A DNA stretch of 64,000 nucleotides from Podarcis cretensis (Eukaryota), in contig OX638150.1 of assembly GCA_951804945.1 (NCBI GenBank), forward strand, positions 49,290,001 through 49,354,000. Direction: 5' to 3'. The notes beneath the pieces are model-generated. The model made no database searches, had not been told where the DNA came from, and was given only the letters and a program-made list of their open reading frames with translations. Below, piece by piece: positions 11,830 to 52,200 of this stretch (position 1 is the first letter of the stretch; each line of letters begins with the position of its first letter). A program made the position numbers and the translations under genes.

Positions 11830-12137
11830 CAGTGGTGCCTCGCAAGACGAAAAGAATCCGTTCCGCGAGTCTCTTCGTCTTGCGGTTTTTTCATCTTGCG
11901 AAGCAACCCTCTTAGCGGATTAGCGCTATTAGCGGCTAAGCGGCTATTAGCGGCTAAGCGGCTATTAGCGGCTTAGTGGTTTAGAAAAAGGGAGAAAAAA
12001 GGGGGAAAAAAATCGCAAGACTCGCAAGACGTTTTCGTCTTGCGAAGCAAGCCCATAGGGAAATTCATCTTGCGAAGCACCTCAAAAACGGAAAACCCTT
12101 TCGTCTAGCGGGTTTTTCGTCTTGCGGGGCACCACTG
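11830..12137. mobile_element. Tigger/pogo-like MITE, family B (internal TAGCGG minisatellite)
   Basis: TIRs CAGTGGTGCCTCGCAAGACGAA...TTCGTCTTGCGGGGCACCACTG, TA TSD; CpG-rich, so probably young. Confidence 0.9.
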
Positions 12138-25700: not shown

Positions 25701-28700
25701 TAAAAAATGTTACCACATTGTGTGGTAAGTTCTTAATTTGATTCTCGGCTATAGACAAGAGGGCTTCCTGTGGCCTGCTATGAATACATTGCTTTGCTAT
25801 CTTGCAATGTATTGTATCTTGCAACATTCAGAGAACACTTTTGCTCAGAATGCTTGTATCCTTGGTCATGGCAAAATTAACCAATGAAAACAAGGCCTAT
25901 GTCATTACTCCAGAATCGGTGCCAGTTTGCTTGGGGTAATGCTTTACACAATTCTTTCTGATCCAATATTATGCTTTCCTTTTGCAAGCAGAACATTGAC
26001 TTAGGAATTGTAGATATATGAAAGTTACAAAAAATGTTTTTTGGATCTGGATGTTGAAATTTCTTGCAGTTGCTCTGAGTAAACAGAACAAATATGTAGT
26101 TAAACTGTGAAATCTTAAGATTTTGCAATGGTGATCCAAAATGCATTTTCTTTTAATGAAAAAGGAATGAATATAGATAAGGGTGGAGGTCAATCAAACC
26201 TATTTGACCAAAACAATTGTGTGTTTTGTTTCATTTTTTTTACTCTAGAGTTAATGAGAGATTCGTTCAATCTCAAGAAGGCTCCAGGGGATGTAATTTC
26301 ATACAACTTAAGTAGCAGAGGGTCTTCTGAGTGTGAAACCTCTTGTATGCTATCTCAGAAAAAGGAAGAGACAAAACTAAGTGAGGATGCTCTGAAAACC
26401 ACACTTCAGGCCGTATCAGTGAACAAAGTTCCCCTTTCTGCAATTGAACAGAGAAGTGATCAACCTGAAAGGAAGAAGGTTAAAATCAAGGAGGAAGAAC
26501 TGGATAGGACAGCTATAAATATGAAAGATAAGAATGAAATTGGACCCTCCCTCTCTACCAGGTCAGTGTCTTCTAATATGTATGAGCAAGGCAATCAGCA
26601 CAGACCTGCATCACTTTTTTTCCGCTGCATGAACTTTGCTATCCATTTCTTCATTTACTTTCTCAGTGTTGCATGCAGTGTCGTCCCTCAGTTTCAGCTA
26701 CCTAGTTTGAAATTTTCAAAACTGTTTAAAAAGATCAAAATTACAGAGAATCGAAAGGACTCTTAAATCATGGACTGATTTAAAACTAAAATGTTCTTTC
26801 ACTTTGAAAAATCACTGCAATAATCTTGTGCTTGCACTATATTTTCCCTCTGCGTTGGCAGTTGTGTAATTCACACTATTGTACTTTCCAGCTTATTTTT
26901 CAATTTGCATACGATCTCTGCAAAAATTTGCAATATTAACTTCATGATGAAAATGCCTGAAAAACCATTGTTAGCTTTCAGAATAAATTTTAAACTTAAA
27001 GCCCCAAGGTTTTTAATAAGTGGATATAGAAATTTAGTGTTGAAATGGGTGGGGAAACTAGGTAACTAGGTGAGCTTTTCCTTATATGGAAGGCCATTAT
27101 ATGGCTATTAAACTCCCAGGAGTTTTTTATTTTTTGTGTTAATGTAATTACAGATTATATTTTGCTTTGATGTTTCTTCACCCCCACACCCAAGTTGTAT
27201 TTTCTAATTGATATATATTTCTGTTTTTATGCTCTTGGGAGAATTAGCAGTGAAGGTCTGACTTGTCCAGATACAGTACGTAACTTGTCTCAGACATTCA
27301 AGTTCAGTGGTACCTTGGTTGTTGAACGGCTTGGCTCCTGAACAAATCAGCTCCTGAACGCCGCAAACCCAGAAGTGTTCCGGTTTGCAAACTTTTTTTG
27401 GAAGCTGGACGTCCGACACGGCTTCCGCGGCTTCCGACTGAGTGCAGGAAGCTGCTGCAGCCAATTGGAAGCCACACCTTGGTTTTCGAATGGTTCTGGG
27501 AGTCGAATAGACTCCCGGAACGGATTAAGTTCGACAACCAAGGTACCACTGTACAAGATTGCTTAGACCAGGTGTGACAAACCTTTTATATCCAGAGAGC
27601 TGCATTGAGGATTGGCCAACCCTACAAGGGTTGTATGTCAGCCAGTGATAGGTCTGGCCAATGTACACTTACACTTGTGTGCATACAGCATGCATGCACA
27701 CACCACACCCAGTGCACCTTTCTATCCCAGTGCTCCAATGGGGGTGAAAGCCCAGAACGGAGCATCTTTTTTAATTTTTGAAAAGCGGCGTTTCTCCTTC
27801 TGGTTTGGTGCCATTGTAAGAAGGTCATAGGAGCCCGGGAAATCAGGAAGGAGCTCTCTTCCCACTTTACTTGCGCATCACTTCAAGCACCATGCCAGAA
27901 GGAGAAGACATTTTTCAAAGTTCAAAAGATGGATCCTGATTTTGGAGGATAGTGGCAGGCCAATAAAAATGGTTTCACAGTCTAGGACTGGCCTGCAGGC
28001 TATAGCTTTGCCATCCCTGGCATAGACAGTTTCAGGATTTTTTTAATTGCTAGGTAAAATTTGCTTGGATAGCTGTGATCAGTGGTTGTAGTAATCAGTG
28101 TTTTTTTGTTTTTTTAAATTGACTAACAGTATGATCTATGCATTTTTACTCAGAAGTAAGTCATACTGACTTCAGTGGGACTTATTCCCAAGTAAGTGTG
28201 AATAAAGGTAAAGGGACCCCTGACCATTAGGTCCAGTCGTAACTGACTCTGGGGTTGCGGCGTTCATCTCGCTTTATTGGCCGAGGGAGCCGGCGTATAG
28301 CTTCTGAGTCATGTGGCCAGCATGACTAAGCTGCTTCTGGCAAACCAGAGCAGCACACGGAAATGCCGTTTACCTTCCTGCCGGAGCGGTACCTATTTAT
28401 CTACTTGCACTTTGACGTGCTTTCGAACTGCTAGGTTGGCAGGAGCAGGGACCAAGCAACGGGAGCTCAGCCCATCGCGGGGATTCGAACCGCCAACCTT
28501 CTGAAAGGCAGGTCCTAGGCTCTATGGTTTAACCCACAGCGCCACCCGTGTCCCTAAGTAAGTGTGAATAGTATTGCACAAATCTTACGCAAGCAATCCT
28601 GTAAAACCAAGTTATTGCATGCTTATATTGTCCAGCATAGTAATTTAGGAAAAGGGAAAGAAACAGTTTGATATTAGTGACTTGATAAAAGTGTGTGTGT

Positions 28701-32901: not shown

Positions 32902-34051
32902 AATGTGTCCTGACAAACAGAAGGCAGCTGCCCATCTACTCCAGTGTTGAAATTAAATAAGACAGCAAGTGTATCCACACCGTGAAAACCTCCAAAATAA
33001 GAGAGGAGTAGTGACCTAAACGGTCAAATCAGATATAAGTTTGCTCTGTGAGCACAGAATGGCTCATTGCAGGCAGGGGAGAAGGAAGACTGGCAGTACA
33101 GCTGGAACTGAAGAGTAGTAGTCCATCCTGCAGCATGGGTGAAGCAGACTGCTGTGTAACAACACCAGGCTCTCTTAAGCACAGATACTACTGTTTGTTC
33201 ATGATGCTGTATCTTTAATACTGAATAAAGCTAAAGCATTCTATTGTTCAGACCCTCCTTGTTCAGATCCTGTAGTTCCCACTCTCTTTGATAGGGTCTT
33301 GGTTTTATCATGGCTGCAGTCCTCATTTTATCCTTTTCCCAGTGGTGTCTCAATGTTCCTCTGCCTCCACATTTCCGACCTGGTCAGGCTAATGGAATAA
33401 CAGCGAAACTGCTGCATGGCCTTTCCCCAACAATACATGTTTCTCGGTATAAAATGGAAAAATACAAATCCTGCCAGGCATGGGGAAAAGTATATTTTTG
33501 TCTTTTATGGCTGAAGAATGAACATTTGGGAAAGCATCACAACGGGAGAAGTAAGGCATCTCTTGTACATAACCTTTTCCCTAAAATCTTCAAGTCTTAT
33601 ACTGTAGAGTTAACCATGTGGTATGCAAAATAAGGCTAGTACAAAGCCCACAAGCTGTTTAAAAACAATAGAAGGACAACTAAACAGAATCTTGTTTAAA
33701 AGCAGGCCAACAATATAATGTAATATGTACCCGTTTTTCAGCTGGTGGCGACAGGGATGGGTAGGTGTTGCTCCTAAAACAGTGCTGTAATACATGTCGC
33801 CATTAAAAAGGATGGAACATGAAGCGGCACCTCATTAACTGATCTTACCATCTTGGGAGGAACACATGGTGTCTAGAAGCTGTGTGATTTGCTTAGCATG
33901 TAGTGGTGGTAGTAACCATAGTCCCCTTACGTTCCTATTTGCTTGTGTTTGCTGTCATTGCCCTGTCAGCAAGGCGCCCGGTGTTGTCCCTCCTCTACAT
34001 AGAAGCATCACTTTCATTTAGCGTAAGAGCCTCGTTGAGGACACTGCACAG

Positions 34052-34068
34052 AAAAAGAGGAAGGAAGC
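34052..34068 (+). promoter_or_regulatory. DOCK2: PU.1/ETS-like box in the DOCK2 proximal promoter
   Basis: AAAAAGAGGAAGGAAGC about 170 nt upstream of the ATG; resembles the PU.1 consensus AAAGAGGAAGTG. DOCK2 is haematopoietic. Confidence 0.5.
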
Positions 34069-34234
34069 TGAGGGATTGTGAGAAGAGCAAAGCTCCCTGC
34101 TGCAACTGCAGCAGTAGACAAACTTGCCTTGCAATTCACTTGACTCCATCCTTGAACATTACTGGGATTTTATCCGGTACCAAACAGCTGTTCTCCTGAA
34201 TCAAGGCTACCCTAGCCTGCTGGACTTGTTGGCT

Positions 34235-34274
34235 ATGACTCCTTGGCAAAAAACTGATAAGAAGATTGGAGTGG
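34235..34274 (+). CDS. DOCK2: DOCK2 exon 1 ([13 protein letters not shown])
   Basis: Resembles human MAPWRKADKERHGV; donor TGG|GTATGT, phase 1. Confidence 0.92.
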
Positions 34275-37200
34275 GTATGTATCATGCAAGCTCCTCTCTG
34301 GGGTTTTCCTCCTCTGCAGGATGTGGGGAGAAGTGCTGCAATGCATGAAGATAAATCAACTTGGTCAGCAAAAAACCCCAAAAATTGAAACAACAAAATA
34401 GCTGTTTTGTGCCTTGTCTGATGGGTCTGTGCTGAACACGCACATAAGAAGGTTTCATTGATACTTGCTTCCAATCAATCTTTGCCTAGTGCTGTTTCCC
34501 TATTCTTGTGGAAAGTCCTGTGGAACTAACTAAATTTAAAGCTGTAAACTATAAAAACAACCCTTTGTCTTGCGATAACCAAACTGGAATCTTAGACATT
34601 CGAGTTCTTCTTAGACATTGACTCAGTTATGCAAGTTGTCCTCTTATTGGCTCTGTTATAAACAGGAAATGGAAAGGGAGCAAGCACATTTTCAGAAACA
34701 TACTATATGTACTGTGCTCCTGAGACACTTGTTTTACTGGTTCTGGGTGTGATCTTTGGCCGCATCATGCAGTCACCTAGCTGGGTCTTGTCAGTGCTTA
34801 AAAATCCCCTGTTGATTACATGATGGAACAAAAGGCAGGAAATAAATGTGCTAAATAACTGAACTTGTACTTATGTGTTGTGTAGATTGTTTAGTCCACT
34901 GCTTTTAAAATCTTCTTGTTGAGATTGTTCATTCATTTTCCAGTGGTAATATAATTATAACCCACAGCAAACTACCAACTAATTACCATGAACTGTGCTG
35001 AGTTAGGAGACTTTCATGTGAGAAATCATTAAATGATTGAACATGGCCAAATCTTAAACATTCAACCCCATTTTGAAACTTAGGAAAGGCCGTAGCTCAG
35101 TACATGCAAAAGGTCCCAAGTTCAATCTTCTGGTAGGCTGGAGGAAACTCCCGTTTGAGCCATTGCCAATCTGTAGACAATACAAACCTAGCTGGATTGA
35201 TTGACTGTCTAAGTCAGCTGTGTATGTTCCTGTGCTGATGACAGGGCAATCTATACATTCTGATTTGCTTGATGTTGTATGAAATTATTTGGATTTCTGG
35301 AAGAAATGCCAGAAGCAAAATACAATTGAGTTTCAGTGCAATGATATAGTAACATTGCAAAATTATTCAAAACTCATACTAAGCTTGGTAGATAGCTCCT
35401 TTTGCAAAACTAAAGAACCAGGATACTGACTTCTCTCTTGTGAATGATCAGAAGCCTCTTGCTGCCTTCTGAAAAGATTCTTGGGCCCAGTGCTTGAATT
35501 ACTCTGGAAAAATACTACCACATACAAAATACATAGCACCTACCATTGTCTGTATATGTACTGAATATATTTTATAATTCTACTAGTACATAGTTCATAT
35601 CTCTAAAGAGCATATAATTTATGAGCAATCCTGCACTAACTATGGAAGATGAATCCTAATCATCTTAAGGTTTTACAATTGCAGTAAAACAAAGGTGGAG
35701 CCTTGAATGTGTTGATACAAATAATTTAATTGATGGTGCTCAAGAGAAATGAATAGAGCCAACAGTCACAAGAAATTTGATTTTTGTCAGGTAAAATCCA
35801 GTTATGTCTGCGTCTTACACAAATGGGGACTTCACCTCACTCTTCTCCCCACTGAGCCCCCAGAAGACCTGGAACTCTATTTGTGTGGCATATGTTTTTC
35901 CGCTTGGTCTTCCTTTAGACCTAGAGTAGACCCACAAATTGTGCTAGTTTCATCATTAAGACCAGATGCCAAGATTTGCTAAACCATACAATTTCGATAG
36001 TCAATAGGGGTAAATGTCAACAAGCACCAATTACAATTCTTGCAGCTGTTACAGCCCATAGAGGATTTAATGGTCAGGCTGAATTGCATTTTTAAATATA
36101 CACTTCAGATTTAGCTGTAAGGAATATTGATGGTTTTGCTTATAATGGCAATGATTTGGGAGTTTTAATCTTTTTTTTTTTTTTTTAAAAAGAACTTTTT
36201 TCACATTATCACCACATATGTTAATGGAGCATTCTTCCAAAAGAGATTTGACAGGCACCCTCACTTTTGACTTTCAAGAATCGCCTGAAGACCTTTCTAG
36301 CTGTTTCTTTTTTTATTATTTTTGCTAGCCAGTCACGTTAATTATTATCTATATTGTTTTTAATGGAGCTTCATACTGTACACCACCCTGCTTTCATAAA
36401 ATGTTGGTATAGATATTCTTTTATAAATGAATTAAAAATAAATAGGAAGTGAGCAGCACATTTCTCACACTACAGTGGTACCTCGGAAGTCGAATGGGAT
36501 CCGTTCTGGAAGTCTGCTTGACTTCCAAAATGTTTGGAAATCAAGGCGTGGCTTCTGATTGGCTGCAGGAAGCTCCAGAAGCCATGGAAGCCGCGTCGGA
36601 CATTCAGGTTCCAAAGAATGCAAAACGGAACACTCACTTCCGGGTTTGCAGCGTTCGGGAGCCAAAACGTTAGACTCGCAACGCGTTCGGGATCCAAGGT
36701 ACGACTGTATAGGTATCTTTTTGCTAAATGCTGTGGTGTTAGATAAATAAAGTATGGCACTTTAAAATGATTTTCATTTAAGTGGAGGCAAGTGTTGGAA
36801 AAGTTGGATTTTTTTAGGGCTGAGCAACTAAGGAGACTTCAAGAGTTTGAACTGGAATATAGGTGGCTAACCTATGATTCTCCAGCTGTTACTGGGAGTT
36901 GGCAATTAGCTGGAAGGCCACATGTTAGTCACCCCCAAATTAGAAAACGGCTGTCCTGACTGTATATACTTGATTTGTTTGTTAAGTCCATGGAAACATT
37001 CCAAAAGTTCACACTGAAACCAGGCCAGGACTCTGAAAGTTTAGTTGTTTTTCTTTTCCCTGTTAGCATCATTGATTCTCCTCCAGGAGCTTTAAAAAAC
37101 ATGATAATGAAGCAAGCATGGATCACAAGCAAGTGCCACAAAAGGAAGTTGTGAGACTTCAACTGTGGTTTATATATTCAATCCAGGACAGCGCTGAAAA

Positions 37201-40200
37201 AGTAATGTGAATCAGGTTTCATCTGCAGAGGTCCCATTCTTGTCTCTCTTCTATTTTTTTTGAGGGGTGGGGAGATAGTATTAATGGATTGTAATGCAGA
37301 GGGCGATGGTTGGATTTGCTTCCCCCAGACATGCAAATTAAAGAAAAGCCATTTCTTTCCGAGAAAATGTCTGAATTCCACCTCCCCCTGTACAAAATGG
37401 AAGAGCACTTTGAAGAAATTTCTACACATATTCTCTGCCGTTTTTGTTGTGGTGGAAGCTGTCCCCCCCCCTTCCTCCCCCGGTGAATGATGCTGTGTAA
37501 TGATGCTAGGCCCAGGACACTGTGGAGCATGAAAAATGGGGATCAAGCTGCCAATACATTTGTGGTTGTTATCACTTGGAGAGGCAGAAAAAGAAAAGGT
37601 GCTATACTCTGCATGCGAAAATTGGACAATATCTCACCACCCCTGGATAAATTTGAAGGACCCCACCCTCATTATCTTGTCTACAAATAGAGGAGAGAGT
37701 TTTGATAGGCTATCTGCTTCAATACAAATACAGTGGTACCTCGGGTTAAGTACCTGAAACTGTACCTCGGGTTAAGTGCCTGAAACTGTTCTTAACCTGA
37801 AGCACCACTTTAGCTAATGGGGCCTCCTGCTGCTGCCGCACCACCGGAGCACAATTGTTATGGGCTTGCTATCATATTTCTGTGAACAAGACTGTGACAA
37901 TACCTTGCCAAAATGTTGAACTTGACAAAGGTAGTTTTAACAGCCCTCAATAGGGGCTAATGGTTGGGAGATTGCTTAGTGATGGAGGACTACTCTAAAA
38001 TGGTCAGAGAAAGGGACATGGGCATACCTTCTCCCACAGCTCCCATAAAGTAGGTTTCTCTGTGTAAAGAACAACAGAAATTGCAGTTGTGAGTAGGAGA
38101 CTAAGGCAGACTGTGAGAGAAACAGAGTGGTCTGAGTTCAGTTTTGGGGGCTTTGTAAGCTAGCAGCACTGGGTGAGTGGGCAAGTGTTCCTTGCTACAG
38201 ATCTGATGTAGGGTTGCTGTTTAAGCTGTCCATGACCACCTCTGCTCAACCCACCTATCAACAAATTCTACAAATTTGTAAGTAAACTCTGTTACAAAGC
38301 AACTTATGTATCCAGTGATCCCTCCTTCCAAATGAAATCAAACCCAGGCAGTTCTCACTGCTCAGGGAAGTGGGACACACATAGCCACAACATGTTGTGC
38401 TAACCAATAGTAAAATCAGCTGTGGCATCTTAAGGATCAGTAAATACAGTGTGCCATGAGCTTTCATGGTCCGGAAAAGTGTTGTTTTCAGCTGGCAGAC
38501 ATACACACACGCACCTCTGCCAACTCAGGATGACACTTCCAAGTATTTGACAAGTGGCACTGGACTGCAGAAGCTTACGCCACAATGCATTTCTTTGACC
38601 TTCAGGTGCCAAACTACTTTTGCTTTTTACTACAATAGACATCCAGCTGGGAATTGTTAACTGATAGGAGTTTTAATGGGTCCTACCTCCTCTTTGGGAT
38701 TCAGGAATTTGTTTATAGTGCTCTGTATATCTTGGCTCCAACAAAACATGCATGTTCGTGCTTTATTCCCCCTTTCCCTTTTTTTAAGTAAAGAAAAGAA
38801 ACAGGACCTTTGTACTTTCAAATGACTTTAAGCTGTAAGTTTCCACTTACTCAGAAAACATCAAGCTTGCAAAACCACTTCCTTTGTCAGTTGGTTGATG
38901 TCACCATACTAACCCTTTGTAAAAAGAAAAAAGAAAAAAGAAAAAAAAGGTACCACTGGGAAGCAATGCAATATTATGTTAACACAACCATGCTCTGAAC
39001 ATTTAGGTTTTTTTTTCTTTAAATGAGCACGACGAGTAGTGATGGCTTAAAGGACAGAATGCACTCCCCCTCCCCTTCATCTGGTTTTTGAAAGCTTCTT
39101 TTAAATGCCAAAATCCATAGGAAATAGTTTAGTTGTTGGTATTTATTATTGTTGTTGTTTTGTTTCTTATACCCTCTCATTCAAATCCAGGACAGCTAAC
39201 AATAAAGGTATAGCTTTTTTTTTAAAAAAAAAGAAGTACAGTGTGACAAGTCAGTATTTGTTTGATTCTCATTTGTCTTAGATTGCTACCCAAATATTGG
39301 ATCATGGAAATACATTATCTGCATATTCTAGCAAATCCCTCAACTGTCCTGATTAAATCGGGAATCGTGTTATGGGGGCTGTGCTCTCACGTGGAAACAT
39401 GGCGCCATAAGGGGCACATTCTGGTTTCCGTGGCAACATGTTGGAGGGTATGGACTAGCAGTATGCAAGTACCTGTATACCTTTATAGGTGGTCAAAAGG
39501 CCATACCCAGAAGTCAGAAGTACTTTTAAAGTGTTTTTGAGAGGGAGAAAGAGAACCTTAAGGTAAACTTTCCTCAGCTACAGCCAGCTGCGAGGTTGGA
39601 GAAGGAATGGTGAGGAAGAACAGAACAAAAATGGAAGACGAAGTGATGTAAAAGCTAAAGTACTTAAATATTAAACACTTTTAGGTTGTTATTCATGAAA
39701 CTGACCATTTTGTGGAAGGGTCACTGTTTTAACTTAAGAAGAATGGAATACAATGTATCACAAGAACAGCTTAATAAAACATGGCTATAGAAATTGTATT
39801 GAGCTGGTACCATGATTAGAACTAAATTACATCAAATACTCTGGATATCTGAATCTGGGTCACAGGGTATGTTTAGAGTTCTAAAAGGGGCGGCCAAATG
39901 TGAGAACAAAATGCACTAAAGTTTTGTTTTTAATTGTTGCTGAGATGTACTGTTTTTGTTTTGTTTTGTGGCTGCTATAACTTGAAACAGCCTTCTGTAG
40001 CTTTTTCTGTATTTTGGCCAAAAGCACTGGAAAGAATGCCAAGATTGATTTCTGAATGGCAGCGAATTAGGGGGACAAGAGGAGAACTCAGAACAATTTG
40101 AAGCTATTAAGTGTGTTCAGGACTTCAGTAAATTGACGCTTTAAGGCTATTCTGCCCAAGCCAATTTATTTAAGATTGAAGGCCCAATTCTCACTTTGGA

Positions 40201-43200
40201 ACAAGTCTAATTCTCACTCCTATCTTCCAAGTTGATTTAATAAAAATTGCAGATTTGATTTACAAATGGTATTATGCTTTGGCTTAGACAAGCGTACTTG
40301 ACAGTACATTGGCTTGTATCCAAAAGTGCTGTTTCACAAGCAGAAAGCACATCACCTCAACCAGTGCAAGGTTAATACCGGCTTTGAGGCAGGCTGCCAA
40401 TAACTATGGATGCTGGATTATTTGGAGTTTATATGGTTTTATTCCTATAATTGTTTTATAATTGTTTATGAAGTATTTCATTACCCTTTGTTTACTGCTC
40501 TGGAGTTTTCAAAACAAAATGTTTTGAAAAATAAAAGCAGTTTTGAGAAATAAAACAGTAAACAAATTAAAAAGGTAGCTCTCTTATCCCTCCTCCTCAG
40601 GTGCAAGTCTCTCTTAGTGTGTGGTTAGAAAACAGTCTATAAAGATTGCCACACCCTTTAGTTGCTTTATTTTGGAGACATATTACTTCAGCTTGCTATC
40701 TGCATATATTTCTTATGATTTATATTTCAGGTGTGAATTTCCAATTTCCACATTTTATGGAGATGTCTTTTGCAAGTGAGGCAGAGAACTGAACCTTCAT
40801 ATTCAGCTTATTTAATATTTATTGCTGTGCTTCTATTTAAAATAATGTTGACTCTCAAAATAATCTTTATAATCCCATATTAAGTTGGATCACATGCAAT
40901 GCTAAGATATAGCAGGGCTGCCATACGTCCTGATTTTCCAGGACATTCTTGTAGCATTTACTAAAAAAACTCAACAACTTTCGGGTTGTCTTGGATCTTA
41001 CTTTTTGAAATATGGCAACTCTAAGCTATAGTTTGGTGTTACATGCATGAGCTTTAAAGGTTGGGCCTTCCTTTCTGATATGGCTGTTTTGAAGAAATCA
41101 GAAGATTTTGCTTTCGCTTTCAACTGTCATTACTTTATTATGTCCAAAGTCAGACAGACTGTAGCTAGTCTTAACTATGGTTTAGGAAAGCAAGGCAATT
41201 TCAGACTGGAGTTGGTGATTCTGGTTTGTCTTTTTAAAGCGTACTTTACACTAACCACAGTTCTTTGTTCGGATCTAGCAAGCTTCCAGATTTCTTGTAA
41301 CTGCACCAAAGGAGGAAAAGGGAGTGGGTAGCAAGCAAGCAAGTTCAAGGCTTGCCCCCATAGCACCAAATTGTGGTTTAGCATCTTGTCTGAAACACAG
41401 CTCTTGTGTTTAAAATGTTAATTTGATTGAATCCATAACAGCTCATTCTGTATTTTCACAGCTTTAGTTGAAGGAGTGTTATTTTTAATGTAAATAAGTA
41501 TATAGGTAATTTTTTATTTTGTCTACTGCGTCCACCCCTTGGTGCTGATGTAGTACATGTTGTTGATACTATTTCTGTTGTCTGTTTAACCGTAATAAAG
41601 ATTGATTGAGTGATTGTATTTTCACAGCAATATCCAATTTCAGAGCTGCAAGAGTACCACAGCTATCTCTGCATATTGGTGATGTAGTCCATATACTGGA
41701 AGACTGTGAAGGTGAGAAATAATTTTTGGTTTGTATCTTGCATCATCACATTGAGTTATGAGCTCATTGGAGAGAGAAAAATCCTGAGACAATGCTTATA
41801 TTACTGTTGTCTTGAAACATGCAGCCATCATGCCTGCATATTTAGAAGCATATTTGTTCACTGAGTGCATTTTTGGTGAATTAATGAGACATTAATGAGA
41901 TTTTACTCTTATCCAGATGTGACTTACCTCCTTACACTGAAACTGTGATGTCTGTATTATGAATACAATGATATTAATTATTAGGAGGTGAAACTTGTTT
42001 AACTTGCCTCTTTTTTTCCTGCTTGTGGGTTTTATGTGTGGGTTTTGTGGTAAAACCATCAGAACTAACATAAGCAGAACAACACTTCTTAATAAATAAA
42101 AACAGCCTTAATTCTGCTAGTGGTTTTGGTTAAATGATAACCAGAAATGTTTTATCCATAGCTGTAGCCATAAAACAGGCTTTGTAGTTTTTTGTAATGT
42201 GGCAGTATTACAAACAACTATGCTTGTGGAGAGAGATACCAACATATGAACTCAAATAAACATGATTTTTAAAAATACGATATATTAACTATGAAACAGA
42301 AGGAGACCTTCTGGTGCTCTTGTGGCCATGCAGCACGTGCACACTGAAATATTCAGTGTGACTGAGAGGCTGAGGAGCTGCAGTACTTGCTCCAATTGAT
42401 TCTCTAGTTTGACTGCAATTGCACATGTTTGTTTAGTTAATGAGTCTTTCACATTGCCTGTTTTTCCAAACTTAGTTTGCTTTCCAAATGATATTGCCCA
42501 ATGCCTCTGTAGCTTAGCAAGAGTCTAGGATAGGGTGGCCAAACAAAGTATGGTTAAGCAAGGTTGTTGGGTTCAGGCATGGCACCAAAATCATAGGTAA
42601 AGCAAGCTATGGCTGGTATGCTGGCAAGAAACCATGGCTTCTCATCATTGTTGCCAGAAAAGAAACCATGGTTAATCTGCTAGGCTAGGTTCGGACAAAT
42701 CATATTTAGGCTAAACAAACCAAGGTTTAGTTATATGTCTGAACCAAACCAATATTTAATTTGCTCTGGGCTTTTCTTAGTAGTGTTGTATAATTTTAAC
42801 CATCTGGGGGGTTTTTTAATTAAAAAGTTTTGTGTTGTAACCCACTCTGGGTTCAGTAGTAGGATAGTGAGAAACAAACAAACAATCTCCATGGAACGGC
42901 CATGTTCTCCATCTGTTTGAAAGGTGGATGAGAAGCAGGAGAGTGACCTCCTTCCTTGTCCTTCACTCTTCAACCAAGTAGCACCTGTGGTGGTAGTTCC
43001 ATGCAGCAGTAGGTTTCCCTTATTATCTTGAAACAAAAAAAATGTGATTTTGCTCTGTTCCTTTTTAATTCAGAGATTTTTTTTTCTTATTCATTCTCAA
43101 GGGATGGCATTCTTTCAGGGGTTATAAAGCTTGAGAAAATACAACTTTTGGATTTCATAAATGCACTGTTAACATGTGAAGGTTGTGTGCTCAAAAATGA

Positions 43201-46200
43201 AACACAAAACTGCTGGACTGAAAGCCAGTACTGGAAAAAAAATAATGAGATGGCACAGTTGATCTGAACAAAGGTCGACAGCCCCAGAGAGATGTTCTGT
43301 AGGTTTATGTCACAGATGAGATTAGCGCAGATATGAAAAAGTTACTCAATGTGTTTATAACATATTTCTTACCAGAAGAGGTCTCTCTTGAGCTACAAAC
43401 ATTGACCTGAGAGCCTTAAAAAGCATTTTCTTCAAAATATAGTTACAGTGGTACCTCTGGTTAAGAACTTAATTTGTTCCGGAGGTCCGTTTGTAACCTG
43501 AAACCGTTCTTAACCTGAGGTACCACTGTGGCTAATGGGGCCTCCCACTGCCGCCACATGATTTCTGTTCTCATCCTGAGGTAAAGTTCTTAACCTGAGG
43601 TACTACTTCTGGGTTAGCGGAGTCTGTAACCTGAAGTGTCTGTAACCCGAGGTGTCTGTAACCCGAGGTACCACTGTATTTCAGGGAGAGTTAACTGACA
43701 CCCCATAAGCAGCATTATGTCTGCAGGGTGTTTTCTTTTCTTTTCTTTTCTTTTTTGCCTTGGGTCCTGTGATTCACACATCATACCTTGATTGCCTCAT
43801 CCTGTGAAGGATGTACTCAGTGGTGCACTTAGAAAACTTTCGACTCTAGATTTAATTTTCTTGTGGAGGGACCATTTTTAGATGGTAATGTGTATTGCGC
43901 TGCTTGCTTCAAAATCTGATAAGGCAGCTCTAGTGTGTTTGGAAGCCCTGGAAATCCCACAGGGTGTGCTTCAAATATTTCCCCCTTGTGTATTGCCCTT
44001 CCCTATTCTCCAGAATTGCCTCAACTTCCACTTCTGACAGTTACCAAAGATGGATGAGTGTCTGGGTTCCTTATTTTGTTTTTTTGACCACTTGCCAGCG
44101 AGCTTCCAGGTTCAAAGAGGGACAAGCTAGGATGCCAAACAGGGGAAGTGAGGCACTTCTGATCATGCTGAACTGTCTCACAACAGTAAGAGTTCCTAGC
44201 AGCCGAAAGTTAACATCTAACGTTTGCCTTTTAGCAACTGTTCTCCAGGCCTGTGCAGAGCTTGTCTGAGGCCTGGGGTGGGAGTCTTGTTCTTGGCGTG
44301 ACAGTGTAAGTCCAGCAGGCCATGGATGAGGCCTCCTCGGCATGATTATAGCCCTCTGAGGCTTGGGGACAAGTATATCTGGCTGCCCCCACTCTGCACA
44401 GGCCTGACAATCTAAGTGATTAGCACTTTTAATGGCCTAACCCTATAGTGTTAAAGTCTGACTTTAAGGCTGACAAACATGGCCTTTTGGGGCTTTAAGT
44501 GTGCCTTGACACAATAATTAATACTGGTTGCTAAGGGAAATGCTTGAGCTTTTCCCCATAGCAGAGAAGATCTGGCTATGCTGCAACATGGCTGTACAGC
44601 AGAGCTTCCGCCGTGTCCTGGATGCTGTCGGTGAAGCTATGCTTAGGCTCAGGTGGCTTTTCCCTCTAGGAAATGACTGTCAAAGCAATTCTGGCTCCCA
44701 CTGGTAGATTATAGTCTAGTCCGACAGGCCTACAAGGCAAAGCAACCTCTGAAAAGGATGCTGTTGTGCCTCCTGACTGGAGGACTGAACAAGACATGAA
44801 AGCTATAATCAGAGCATGGGGGGGGGGGATCAGCTAGGAGAGAAGTAACATTGCTGCTCGCCCCTCAACCCAGATTACTTTGGCATATTGCCCTCTCCCC
44901 TTCACTATATATACAATGTGGTTACACGTGAAGGAGAGAAAATTTGGGGGAATTTTAGGTAAGAAAAAAGGTAAGCGGGAAGCATGAAAGAGTTGCATTA
45001 TATTATGCATACAGTGTGTGGAGAAAGTGGACACAGATAATTTTTTCTCCCTGTCATCATACTGAACCCCGGGGTTGCCCAATGAAACTGAGTATTGAGA
45101 GATTCAGGGCAGAAGTACCGGTACTTCATACAGGACACATAGTTAAACAGTGGTTTTTGCTTTCATAAGATGTAGTCATGGGCACCAACTCAGCCTTTTG
45201 AGGGGATTAGACAAATTCATGGAGGATAAGGTTATCCATGGCTCTGAGTCTGGATGGCTATATATTACTTCCGGGGCAAGATCAAACTACAGTGCTCTTC
45301 TAAAATCTTTAAAAAGGCAGATTTGGTTCATAAAAGGGATTTATGGCATGAACCCATCACTGGTGATTTTTAGAAGAACTCTTTAGATTTTTTAAAATTT
45401 GCACCCACTTCCTTTTTGTTATTTGGTGTGTCTTCATTAAGTTGTGTCCTGAGGATTTACTGCTCATCAAAGGGTGTAATGTGGATTTTAACTTTATTCT
45501 TTTTATATTGCTATGCTAATTGTGTAAATTTTGTGTGCCTCCTTGCTCTGGCAATTGCCCTGAAAGGCATTTATGAATACTTTATTATGAACAAAGAAAC
45601 AAACACAAATACATACATACATACATACATACATACATACATACATACATACATACCAGTGATCCTCTTTCAACACAATTTAATCTATGCATACCAGGAA
45701 GTAAACTGCACTGTGTTCAGTGGGACTTACTCTCATGTAATCATGCATAGGATTGCTACCCTAGTTTTGCAGAAATTGAACGAATTGGCTCAATTTGGAC
45801 ATTGAAAATCATATAATAAGTAACTATGGTTTTGCTTTGACTTTTAGGTTGGTACAAAGGATACATTGTAAGACATAAAGGGGTAGAGGTAAGATTATTC
45901 TTATTGACTTTATTCTTTTTTTGTTGTTGATTATCTGTTTGATTTTTTTTTTTTGTAATAGACTATTACTTTATTCTTTCTTTTTCAGTGTGTGGAGTTT
46001 AATCCTGAGAAGAGTCACTGAATCTATGTCAGTGGCCAATATTTCAATAAGGAAATGAATGTTTTTGTACTATGAGAAAGGTAGATTAAATAACAAATAA
46101 TGGATTGACCCGCGTCCAACTTGTCGTATACACTGAAGGGATCATGTGTATCACAAATTGCAGTGCCCTTTAGCTAATTGAAACTGATGTAGCTGTTAAA

Positions 46201-49200
46201 AGCAAATTATGATATAGCACAAGATAAAAGTTGAAGATCCTAATAGGTTGGCTGAAGCCTAGGGACATACCTGAAATCTTTGAGCCAAATCATTTATTTA
46301 TTTATTTGCACCAGGTTTTTTAACCACACTTTCATTTAAGCACCCATGAGGCATCTCACAACACCAGAGTATAAATCACAAAAGTAAAAATACAACCGTG
46401 ACAATAAAAACGTAGGCATAACAGCAACAGCAGTATGATAAGACATCTTTGTGCACAGGTAGAACACCACAGCCTCTAAGGAAAAAAATGCCTGCCTAAA
46501 ATGGAGTACATTAGAACCAGTACTTTGATTGGATCAAGTCATGCCCTTCTGCAAATGGAAGGTCTTCCTGTTTTCATAAGGGATTCTGATCTAGCTGTGC
46601 CTCTTTCAGAGCTATTTTGCAGCTCTATAGCTGTGTATCTTCTAGTTCAGCTTTACCCTATTACTAACCGGCATCCCTTTATTCCTGCAGTGCCTAAGTT
46701 CCAGCTGACATCTGACTGTGTGCCTTTGTTTTTTACATTTAACAACCACTTCTTAAGTTGCTTTGTTCCCTTTGGTTTTTCCCCATTGACTCTGCCCATT
46801 AGGCTTATCCCCACATGACATTGAATGTAGCTGTAAGTACAAATGATTGTGTGAAAGAGCGTAGACTTGATTTGTACAGCTCAGTTATTGTGTACACAGA
46901 CACTACATTTGTTGAATTTAACACATGAGCACCCCTTTTCATTTCCCGTTTTCTTCTTCTCTTATGTGCCGATTTAAATATTTCCCTTTCCCCTCCCTTC
47001 ACTGACTAGCATTGGCATGAACATCCTGGTTTGTTTAAACTTGGATTCCCCTCAGTTTAGATGAAACAGTGAGCTCAGGTTTAATGTCAGGATAATTTAG
47101 GATCTGAGTGACATTTCAGTTTTTCAGCTTGACTGCTGATCACAAGAGGATATGTGTACCATGTGTTGTATTAAAGAGAAGATTCACAAATGGATCTTAG
47201 GCTACATGTTCCATCAACATGATTAGCAATCACGTGGTTAGCAAAAAAAATTAAATATGAAGCAGGATATGATGGTCACTGCAACACTCTGGGAGAGAAG
47301 GTTTAAGACTCCTCTCTCCAGCTGCAATCTCAGCAAAACCACCCCACTACATGGTAATAAGCATTAGGAAAAAATGCTCAGTGGCACCAAGGCTTCAGCT
47401 ACCTATCCTCTCAGGCTGTGGTGCTGATCAGAATTGTGGTCTCCTTCACTGGCCTGGTATTTAATTTTTAAGAACCTAGCGTGTGACTGCTAATCCTCCT
47501 GTGTAACTGAATGTGTTGTTAGGCCACCAGACCCACAGGTTGTAGACAGAACCATGACAAAGATACTTTAATACATAAACTCCTCTTGAGCCTCGTAGGT
47601 ATTATAAAATATTATATGAATGGAGATGCTACCTTGAATGTTTGTACTTTGGTGAAGTCAATGGTTCCTTTAGATGGAGACTACTTCTCCATTTTCTCCA
47701 GTATTATCTCTTCCAGCTAGCAGTGGCTTTGAGGCCTCAGGCAGAGCTCTTTCAAATAACTGGCTTTTTGAAACATTTAGCAAGAGATGGCTCTGGCTGA
47801 ATCTGCATAGCTGTCAACTTTTCCCTTTTCTTGCGAGGAATCCTATTTGGAATAAGGGAATTTCCCTTTAAAAAAGGGAAACGTTGACAGCTATGTGAAT
47901 CTGGGACCTTCTGCTTGCAAAGCTTGTGCTCTACCACGCAGTCAAAGAAAAAGCTGGTGTATGGAACCAACACTTGAGTCAGGCATTAAGAAATAGTTGA
48001 GGATGAAGAAAATAGGTGGACGTTCATTTGCAGTGGACAGGACTCTATGAGCAACCCTGGTAATGTGTGAACTTGATCTGATGCCCTTCAGATGTTTTGG
48101 CTGGCTGGAGCTACTGGGAGTTGTAGTCTAAAACATCTGGAAGGCCCCAGGCTGGGAAAAGTGGCAAATGGTTAATAATTTAACTCCGTACATAGTAGTT
48201 GCAGCTACATGAGAATAAAACTCACTAGAGTTTTATTCCAGAACCTCTATATATCAACCTTCTTTCGGTCCTTTTAATTTGTCATAGAAGAAATGTTCGG
48301 TACAATATAACAAATGTGCTTTCCCCCTTCTTCTTCCATTAGGGAATATTTCCAAAATCTTTTATCCACATCAAAGAACTTTCTGTTGAGAAAAAAAGGT
48401 ATTTCATTGAGATAATTCTTTTGAGGTATATGTCAGCGGATGGGAGTATTATAGCTAAAATCCCCCATGTGATTGATGCTGAACAGCTTGGCGAAATAAT
48501 TTCTGTAACTAATGCTTGAAAGGGTCCTTTGCCAAGAGTGATCCTTATCGTCTGATGGGAAAAGCTAGAATGTGCACACCCAGTAGCTGATAGGCAAAAG
48601 ATTTGTAAAGTGCCCTTTCCTAATGACAAGGAGGGTGAGGGGTGCTTGTGGGTGGTGTTGTCAGTCAGGTAACAGTCTGGCATAGTAGGACCCTGGACTG
48701 TTCCAAGTTTGCAACTTGATTCAGTGTTATCTGCAACCAGGGCTGGCCCACCTATGAGGCAAGGTGAAGTAACTGCCTCAAGTGGCAGGATCCACAGGGG
48801 CAGCAGATCCAACCGCCAAGAAATGCCCGCTGTTGCTGCCACTACACTACCCCCTTGATCCCAATGTGGAACTTTACCCCCTCCCCCCATTCCCCCCTTC
48901 TTCTTTGAAAGGTTGGAGATGCCATTTTGTTGTTTATTTCAGGTGTCAAAATTATTATTATTTATTAAATGTGTATACCACCATTCATTTGTAGATCTCA
49001 GGGTGGTTCACGGCATAAAAATACAAGAAAGTGTCTCCGAGACTTATGTCCCTCTTAGCCGGACTAACCCCCTTTGCTTCTGCCTCCTTCCTGAAGAATG
49101 GAGAGCCTTAAAGGGGTAGTCTTTTGGTCTGGAGCCTAATACTCCACCTCCTTCCTGTCAGTTCCCTCTGGTGTGCTGTGCTGGCACGAGTGAGGTCCTT

Positions 49201-52200
49201 GGTGTAGAGGGACTTTCTCACAGAGGAAATCAGCCTGGCCTGAGTTTGTGTGTGGCTGTTTTCGGGGGCTTCTAGTTCAGGAATGTGAGGTTTAAGAGGC
49301 TCCAAGCTGATTGGCTCAGCCTTGGTGTTAGGCCTGGGTCCATCTGTGCCCATCTAGCACCCCCTGTGTATTTTACCATTGATCCTTCTGATCTGGCTGA
49401 CCGTTCCTTCTCTGGGCTGGATTCTGGGCTGCTGATCAGGGTGGGAATCATGCCATTAAACCACTGTTTATCCTTTTGTTCAGAAATGCAGAAAATGTAA
49501 TACCTGCTGAGATTCCTTTGGTGCAAGAGGTTACCTGCACACTTTGGGAATGGGGCAATATCTGGAAACAGCTTTATGTGGTAAGCAATCCCTCTCATAG
49601 GTCTATTACTTCAAGTATTTTAAACAAAAAGTACCTCAGATGAATAAAATTATTGATTGCAGGCAAAGAAGACGTTAACAGGGTTAGGTGCTATGTTAGC
49701 CATATTGTGTAGGCTTAATTATGGATATGCCAGGTGTTTAAGACAGTGTTTTGTCTTTCATTTCATGAAAAGAACACTCTTTTGAAAGAGACTATAAAGA
49801 ATCAATCCCTTCATTGAAGAGTTTGCTCTTTTGTTAAAAGCCTGCCAGTATAATTCCACTTTGAGTTTTATGCTCTTTCAGTCTCTGACTGACCTTTAAT
49901 ACGCAATGCAGGAATGTGCTCACAGTAGGAGGTTGAAGGCACCTGTAATTCAGAACCTACTACTTTTTGCTTATGGGGAAAAGCTGCTATTATATATTTC
50001 TAAACAACTTGTCTATTTTTAATGTGTTCCGACAGCCTACCTAATTCAAAGAAAGGGACTTTTGTGTGCCAAAGGACAGCACTACTGCACAGTGTATTTA
50101 AACCTTAACTGGAAGTGCCATTATTATAAATAGCCTCTCTATACTGCGGGTTTTAGTTGCCACAATTAGCACATCTGGTGAAAGCAGTGTGACTCAGTGG
50201 CTATAGCACTCTGTCAAAGGCACAAATAAGAAACCTAAAAGCTTTTTTCCCCTCTTCTAGCTGAATTTCACCAAATAAAAGATCCATCACACACAAAGCC
50301 AAATTTGGGGGGGGGGGGAATCATTGCAGTGGGTGTGGTACTGCAGGGGATCCCATGTTCCACTTAGGCCATGCAATACTATTTCTTCCCTTGGTGTGGT
50401 GAGGTGTGACCTAGCCCACCTTTTTCTGATTGGCAAGCTTGGCATGATGGGGTTTAAGCTGTGCTGAGTGTAAGGGCGGAATAGGAACCTAGGAAGTGGC
50501 CTTACAGTGAGTCAGGCCAAAAGCCCATCTAGCTTAGCATTGTCAGCACTGACTTGTAGTGACCATTCAGGGCTTCAGGCATGGAGTCCTTCCGAACCCC
50601 AGCTGGGGAAGCCAGGGATTCAGCTGGAGACCTGTGTATGCAAAGCAGATGCTCTACCAGTGAGCTGTGACCCTTCCCTGTGGGCTACACCCACAATCCT
50701 GGGGAAACAGGCTTGCCCTTGTTACCTCCAATTTTCGCTGTTGTATCCCATCTCTCTGTCACCCTGTAGCATGAATAATATGCACCAAGCCTTTGTAAAA
50801 ATGGTAACATTGGTTTTATATGCACTGATTGGTTTTGTAGCTTTCGAAAGTAGGATAGTTTTGCTTTAATACCAGAGCAAAGATCCTTATTTTTCTGCAG
50901 TCCAATAATTGTTTAATCCCTGGAATAAAAGAAAATAGTATTTGAAATTTCAGATAAGTTGACAACTGAAATGTGTTATGTGTTTCAGGCAAACAAGAAG
51001 GACCGGTTTCGACAAGTACAATCTATGATGTGCGAGTTAATGGAGTGGAGGTCTCAGCTTCTCTCAGGCACACTGCCCAAAGATGAGCTCAAAGAACTGA
51101 AGCAAAAAGTCACTTCCAAAATTGACTATGGCAACAAGTAAGTTCTCTAGTTCTGGCTTACGGCTACTGATACAGTTCAAGTCAGTGCTGCAAGCTGGGA
51201 TATTTCAGAAATGTTAACAATGATTGAGTTGGGTTTACTATTGCTTTCAAAAATGAACTCATAAAATCATAGTGATGTCATATTGTTCTAGGCAGGCATT
51301 TTTTTATTTAGATGTGTTTGTGTTTAATTTTAAAGTGTTTTCATTCTTAAGATTTTTCACAAGGCCCATCAACCAGTATATATAAATTTGAACACCTGAT
51401 GTGCTGTATTGTTTCATGGGGATGTAGACATTTTAAAAGTGATTCCTAAATGCATATTAAAGGATAACATATTTAAATATCTAAAGACAAGCATGAGCTT
51501 CAGATTATTTAAATGCTAAGTGACTTGGAAAGGTATGCTTCTATAAGGTGGTTGATATGAGCTCTAAAAAACAAATAAGGTTACTGATGTTATTTCCTCT
51601 TTATGCTTACAGGATACTAGAGCTAGATCTGATAGTTAGAGATGAAGATGGGAATATCTTGGATCCAGAGAAGACCAGTGTCATCAGCCTCTTTCATGCT
51701 CATGCTGAAGCTACTAACAAAATCACAGAACGGATTAAAGAGGAGATGGTATGAAGTTTACACACCCATTTCTGTGTTTTCAAGTAGAAGTTTCCTTTCT
51801 CATAGTAGGAAGGTTATTACATGAGAACCTTATCGTTTACTGGTTTTAGCCAGTGAAAGCTTTTTCATCACCAGATTGTGTACATTGAGAATGTTTTGTA
51901 TAAAGTGCCGTTACTATGTACTGTATTGTTAATCTTTTATTTAAGTTTTCAGCTGCAAAGGATACCCCAAGTAGCACAGAACACTGTTACAGAGACAAAA
52001 GAGAATTCAAAGTCTGATGTGGTGACAAATAAGATTTCAAAAAGTTAGGTGCTTATCTCTCGCTTCCTGCTCTCCAAGATCATTCCTTTTAGCCAGCCAA
52101 GTAGCCTTATTTTGCATTTGGAACTTACTTGATCATCTGTTGGTGTGTTAAAAAGCTTCAGTCCTCTTGAAGCAATAGCTTTCCAGGCTCATTATTACAG

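Follow-up and report, generated by a model that had tools for sequence, protein, structure and literature searches.

A LINE 3′ end inserted at the DOCK2 exon 2 splice acceptor of a Podarcis lizard, and the cassette exon that it predicts

The window (the whole stretch of Podarcis cretensis DNA that was analyzed, 64,000 nt) contains exons of DOCK2, which SPDL1 adjoins on the upstream side. DOCK2 was recognized by comparison with RefSeq proteins: exons 2 to 15 of Podarcis RefSeq DOCK2 map collinearly, the P. raffonei protein gives an unbroken match over residues 1 to 453, and an exon further downstream is a 100% match to Podarcis muralis DOCK2. A PDB search with exon 2 pointed, weakly, to the same gene. 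Two DOCK2 first exons are annotated, and the coding exons considered here are as follows.

26534..26561, + strand: coding part of alternative DOCK2 exon 1a, within the last SPDL1 coding exon but in another frame (XP_028573324.2, XP_053232488.1, XP_060127705.1)
34235..34274, + strand: coding part of DOCK2 exon 1b (RefSeq XP_028573322.2)
41628..41711, + strand: DOCK2 exon 2, 84 nt, SH3 domain, placed by protein mapping

Exon 1a encodes MKLDPPSLP, ends in the donor CAG/GTCAGT, and is annotated in P. muralis, P. raffonei, and Zootoca; its position inside an SPDL1 exon suggests either SPDL1-DOCK2 read-through or an exonic promoter. In exon 2, the SH3 motif at 41633-41635 reads ISNF in Podarcis and Zootoca versus IYNF in Rhineura, Anolis, snakes, turtles, and mammals, a difference that is, on this comparison of sequences, a lacertid substitution of Ser for Tyr, located six bases into the exon.

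Immediately before exon 2 lie the only two exact copies of the 14-mer TGTATTTTCACAGC in the window, one at 41449-41462 and the other at 41615-41628. A sequence-only reading of this DNA, which overlooked exon 1a, had proposed that a retrotransposon insertion duplicated the exon 2 acceptor AG together with the first exon base; both sets of coordinates proved exact, with no extension of the match on either flank and 152 bp enclosed. The duplication spans acceptor positions −13 to +1, covering the pyrimidine core and CAG and leaving the branch point outside. The features of the duplication and its insert are given below.

41449..41462, + strand: upstream copy of the target-site duplication (TSD), with pyrimidine core, CAG, and first exon base (AG at 41460-41461); now an orphan acceptor in ancestral intron context
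41463..41614, + strand: 5′-truncated LINE 3′ UTR, 152 bp, sense to DOCK2, recognized by family copies and their shared 3′ end
41594..41599, + strand: LINE AATAAA, 133 nt past the upstream acceptor and common to most family copies
41600..41614, + strand: (GATT)n-type tail, holding TTGAT (A at 41605, position −23) and a decoy AG at −18
41615..41628, + strand: downstream TSD copy, the acceptor of annotated transcripts (AG at 41626-41627)

At a fixed site, the 14-mer would recur by chance with a probability of 7.5e-9, and across the whole window only one other exact repeat of ≥14 bases was found at a spacing of 100 to 300. That the pair reflects chance or an old local duplication, independent of any insertion, would agree with the lack of an empty site in any genome; however, both ends of the family homology described below abut the 14-mer copies exactly, and the TSDs of sister copies fall in the same size range, so that we regard this explanation as extremely unlikely. 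The perfection of the upstream copy is no sign of selection, since an intact copy is expected without selection with a probability of about 0.36-0.49 at 5-7% divergence. Elsewhere in the window, at 11890-12079, an exact 16-bp direct repeat with its copies 174 bases apart surrounds short TAGCGGC-type tandem repeats and looks like the interior of another repeat.

The insert is not single-copy. Among 66 candidate matches in the genome, 40 were scored, and 39 of these were other matches, at 72-93% identity. The best 30 loci (29 others and the window copy) were taken for copy comparison. Family copies share a common 3′ end, AATAAA plus (GATT)n, and vary in their 5′ extent; in the window, the AATAAA at 41594-41599 is followed by GATTGATTGAGTGAT. 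At 13 of the 29 other loci, this 3′ UTR is preceded by remnants of ORF2. At one of them, L006, the upstream frame shares 43% and 36% identity with the ends of ORFs that contain an RT, and one of these ORFs encodes an intact endonuclease-RT protein of 1127 aa. Clear TSDs of 10-17 bp, judged by eye, flank 7 of 36 other distinct copies (L006, L007, L008, L013, L018, L020, and L068) and are absent or ambiguous in the rest. The flanks of the DOCK2 copy match no fetched family copy, which bears out the earlier view that the upstream 14-mer keeps the ancestral intron context. Because family copies, ORF2 remnants, sister TSDs, and unmatched flanks agree, the insert is a 5′-truncated LINE 3′ end with a true TSD, as had been proposed from its tail and flanking repeats. 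Many matches span positions 1-152, and the insert was also considered as a complete short element; this was rejected, as the copies continue 5′.

The motif ACAG lies inside four of the eight clear TSDs (L001, L006, L007, and L013), at the start in three and at the end in the window copy; with so small a number, an ACAG-type target preference favoring acceptors is possible.

When ORF2 was compared with those of three other lizard LINEs, the best score (167 bits) was to one that we take to be BovB/RTE, versus 77 and 44 bits for the others. The family is therefore likely an RTE group LINE and probably RTEX, a putative clade name drawn from such comparisons. RTEX elements carry an ORF1 with an esterase domain; no ORF1-like frame was found in the 3.2 kb upstream of one 1127-aa copy, which belongs to a sister family and is possibly truncated. 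A protein atlas search with the 1127-aa ORF returned endonuclease-RT clusters only and pointed to no clade.

Several observations concern the relatives and neighbors of these copies. In the sister family, the 1127-aa endonuclease-RT frame is open in at least five copies (L043:604-3984, − strand, and others on C4, C8, and C17), and this family is therefore likely young; L043 ends in (CTAA)n, which repeats the branch-point word CTAAC. A longer family copy (L046:628-4580, − strand) is split at 1054-2184 by another RT-bearing element, presumably Rex1-like, in a nested insertion. At L049:1-2802 (− strand), a retrovirus-like gag and protease/RT stretch stands beside a LINE copy, and about 460 bases upstream of the family match in L010 lies an exon that we take to resemble an armadillo-repeat catenin.

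Compared over 142 bases with the majority sequence of seven near copies, the insert has 9 differences, or ~6% divergence from its subfamily. A contig of run X15, from organism D, runs gapless from 41324 to 41498 over the 5′ junction, with 139 bases to its left and 36 to its right; organism D carries the insertion. The end of this contig at 41498 was rejected as a splice mark, since the 31-mer there becomes common to other family copies. Across 14 DNA-type runs from four organisms, the share of sampled words was 0.75-0.98, versus ~0.68 possible for an empty allele. Presence of the insertion is firm in four runs with a share of ≥0.88 and suggestive in the remaining DNA-type runs; runs X16 to X20, with small word shares, were left out of evidence. 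Run X2 of organism B held 0.98 of the words, equal to the likely source run, which fits presence of the T at 41507 discussed below. By the word shares of the 14 runs, no empty site was seen, and no look-alike of the window was found in other genomes. Its 9 differences in 142 bases and its presence in organism D show that the insertion is old and that DOCK2 can function with it in place.

Exon 2 is thus preceded by two acceptors. We scored them with splice matrices trained on the window's own 21 acceptors and 24 donors; the matrices are crude, with two or three training sites possibly off by a few bases. On this scale, the upstream acceptor scored 3.3 versus 2.8 for the downstream one (leave-one-out range of real acceptors, −2.7 to 11.7), and pyrimidines made up 13 of 17 positions versus 9 of 17. 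The upstream acceptor has CTCAT at −17 and TTGAT at −36; the downstream acceptor has TTGAT at −23 and TTAAC at −39 (position of the A in each case), with decoy AGs at −18 and −28. Both downstream candidates lie inside the insert, in keeping with the earlier statement that the real exon now draws its branch region from it. The TTGAT at −23, a candidate branch point supplied by the tail, likely keeps the downstream acceptor working. A hairpin hiding the upstream acceptor was considered and found unsupported, the upstream site being slightly more accessible in the fold (unpaired 0.57 versus 0.48 downstream).

Annotation and transcript data point to the downstream site. Among 15 of the 32 members of the RefSeq protein cluster, four lacertid proteins span the junction (two of P. 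muralis, X1 and X2, and one each of P. raffonei and Zootoca, the latter X2), and each of them uses the 41628 acceptor in frame. Such proteins weigh little against a minor isoform, because gene models favor open frames and would hide one that bears a stop. In run X15, guessed to be RNA from organism D, the contig depth estimated from exons 3 to 5 is 6.5-8.8, and the exon 1b bin has zero depth. With the intronic contig subtracted, the exon 2 bin of X15 corresponds to 59-80 nt, near the normal 84 and below 128 or 250; a single rounded figure underlies this estimate (36-120 nt if its "2" is coarse), and contigs drop rare forms. By this rough arithmetic, the X15 depth fits a normal 84-nt exon. Raw-read runs X22, X23, and X24 hold 218, 32, and 0 bases in the exon 2 bin, too thin for junction evidence. 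Among the 15 listed of 117 RNA joints over 33900-49800, a region whose intronic repeats swamped the tables, none is from DOCK2, and none of the runs listed as carrying the sampled words is an RNA run.

A 5′-truncated LINE end thus lies one base inside exon 2, and we think it probable that the downstream acceptor is the one used, likely with help from a branch point in the tail, and that the insertion is a tolerated passenger. Against this reading, the upstream acceptor is no weaker on paper, the insert carries a donor whose match to U1, described below, is unusual nearby, and the data examined yielded neither a read across any of the junctions nor an empty site.

A rival explanation is a natural gene trap, in which the upstream acceptor, an early stop, and the LINE AATAAA form a short last exon that ends some DOCK2 transcripts; with the stop inside a last exon, nonsense-mediated decay (NMD) would be dispensable. 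The anatomy is complete, comprising an acceptor at 41461, TAA at 41491, AATAAA at 41594, a U-rich stretch 7-26 nt past the AATAAA, and CA at +24 to +29, and among the folded signals the AATAAA has the highest accessibility (0.70). However, the AATAAA is simply the family's own 3′ signal, the hexamer is frequent locally (12 in 13.5 kb of intronic sequence), and the U-rich stretch is the pyrimidine tract of the downstream acceptor and falls before rather than after the CA sites. Transcript ends are not listed as piling up at the site, in raw reads whose numbers are too low to tell. We consider a gene trap unlikely.

The donor inside the insert, together with the upstream acceptor, delimits a candidate exon.

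41462..41505, + strand: predicted 44-nt cassette exon with an in-frame TAA at 41491-41493, known from sequence only
41503..41511, + strand: cryptic donor TAG/GTAATT, with the T at 41507 a post-insertion change

The sequence-only reading had placed the donor at 41505/41506, the 44-nt exon, its in-frame TAA, and a new 122-nt intron (41506-41627), and all of these coordinates are correct. The donor has a matrix score of 5.3, compared with 1.8-10.9 for the 24 real donors of the window, and donors of equal score occur at 0.47 per 152 intronic bases. By complementarity to U1, it is more exceptional: it matches at seven of nine positions, as do only 5 of 764 nearby intronic GT sites (0.06 per 152 bases). 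The T at 41507 is found in none of 27 aligned copies (21 have G and 6 have A). Genome-wide exact patterns had T in 2 of 17 cases and G in 15 of 17, and the second copy with T (L038/L056) belongs to a different subfamily. Because T is absent from the aligned copies and the other T copy lies in another subfamily, the donor is, as judged from these alignments, a later and recurrent G-to-T point change separate from the insertion event. The proposal that an exon and an intron were born by TSD is so far unsupported; neither the TSD nor the majority sequence of the element brought the donor.

Use of the upstream acceptor would yield either the cassette or a 250-nt extended exon, and both reach the stop at codon 24 (from exon 1b) or 20 (from exon 1a), in frame from both first exons. 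NMD is often weak near the start codon: one study puts the inactive zone at 21-25 codons for LMNA and HBB and at 50-100 codons for BRCA1 and VHL (PMC12776119). With its stop at the edge of such a start-proximal zone, NMD coupling of the upstream-acceptor product is doubtful; full-length protein would be lost regardless. Re-initiation to give a DOCK2 lacking the SH3 domain was considered and is unlikely, with the first in-frame ATG 326 nt past the stop and behind five out-of-frame ATGs.

These results bear on a regulated poison cassette, in which some transcripts would include the 44-nt exon, splice out the 122-nt intron, and so lower DOCK2 via NMD. Both of its sites score within the range of the window's real sites, its stop is in frame from either first exon, and the T that makes its donor is rare in the family. 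Nevertheless, equally good matrix donors are not scarce in intronic sequence, and the same G-to-T in a copy of another subfamily means that the donor T needs no selection. The X15 contigs and the thin raw reads gave the cassette no RNA support, and its stop sits at the 21-25-codon boundary given for LMNA and HBB (PMC12776119). We judge such a cassette very unlikely. NMD-coupled control of DOCK2 dosage, which the sequence-only reading had also put forward, is unsupported so far: annotated proteins use 41628, X15 fits the normal exon, and the stop is start-proximal.

In the history that we favor, that of a tolerated passenger, target-primed reverse transcription with nicks staggered by 14 bp would have duplicated positions −13 to +1 and moved the native branch region 166 nt upstream; TTGAT at −23 (or TTAAC at −39) likely now stands in for it. 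Exon definition, through the strong exon 2 donor and the intact exon sequence, would favor the adjacent acceptor, and the insert would thus be removed with the intron. The G-to-T change, unseen in the subfamily, produced a donor of fair quality at 41506. Splicing to the upstream acceptor, if it occurs, would be a leak, giving a 19- or 23-residue peptide and poorly coupled to NMD.

A broader proposal is that sense LINEs with (GATT)n or (CTAA)n tails may rescue the host acceptor, the tail being a run of branch-point motifs, and yet leave a full gene trap behind (a spare acceptor, an early stop, and a poly(A) signal), which in DOCK2 the later donor mutation would have made into a tunable cassette or last exon governing the dose of DOCK2 in wall-lizard leukocytes. 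We hold this to be improbable. The insertion itself is real, old, and likely tolerated, while the poison exon is a prediction made from the letters of the DNA.

With its two acceptors, which have an identical 14-base core, lie 166 nt apart, and differ only in branch region and downstream sequence, the locus is a natural experiment set in an essential immune gene. It suits minigene work on acceptor choice and on a LINE tail as a branch point. If regulated upstream use were true, the locus would capture an exon just as it emerges from a TSD and one point mutation. A literature search found no paper on the DOCK2 locus, most subscription papers being outside its reach.

Duplicated splice sites were reportedly treated by Reed and Maniatis in 1986. 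The inserted family resembles the RTE group in that its relatives in this genome encode an APE endonuclease, an RT, and a C-terminal Cys/His finger and possess a short 3′ UTR, AATAAA, and a short-repeat tail; RTEX is listed among vertebrate LINE clades in PMC5753468. Introners, as described in 10.1101/2022.06.06.494994 and PMC11282704, co-opt a 3′ splice site from the TSD, and the likeness is that an AG within the TSD serves as the acceptor behind the element, so that the element leaves the mRNA. Most introners, however, are DNA transposons inserted into exons; they bring or recruit a donor immediately and make introns in many copies, whereas at DOCK2 an old intron was merely lengthened, the donor came later, and a single locus is involved. 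The DOCK2 insert does not qualify as an introner: its donor is an internal one, 44 nt in, that none of the 27 aligned copies shares. In Alu exonization, a point mutation activates a cryptic site in a retroelement (PMC7349775), and here, too, one later substitution creates a donor inside the element; at DOCK2, in contrast, the acceptor is the host's own duplicated one and exon inclusion is only predicted. The closest known case is the merle allele of the dog, in which a SINE-Cf lies at the boundary of PMEL intron 10 and exon 11 with a 15-bp TSD that holds the original acceptor (PMC7349775). In both cases, a retroelement sits at an acceptor, the TSD includes the acceptor, and the adjoining tail comes to supply part of the 3′ splice signal. 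The merle element is antisense, its poly(T) acts as a pyrimidine tract, splicing goes to a cryptic acceptor within the SINE, and a phenotype results, whereas the DOCK2 element, known from sequence, is an old insertion of a sense LINE 3′ UTR whose tail is a candidate branch point.
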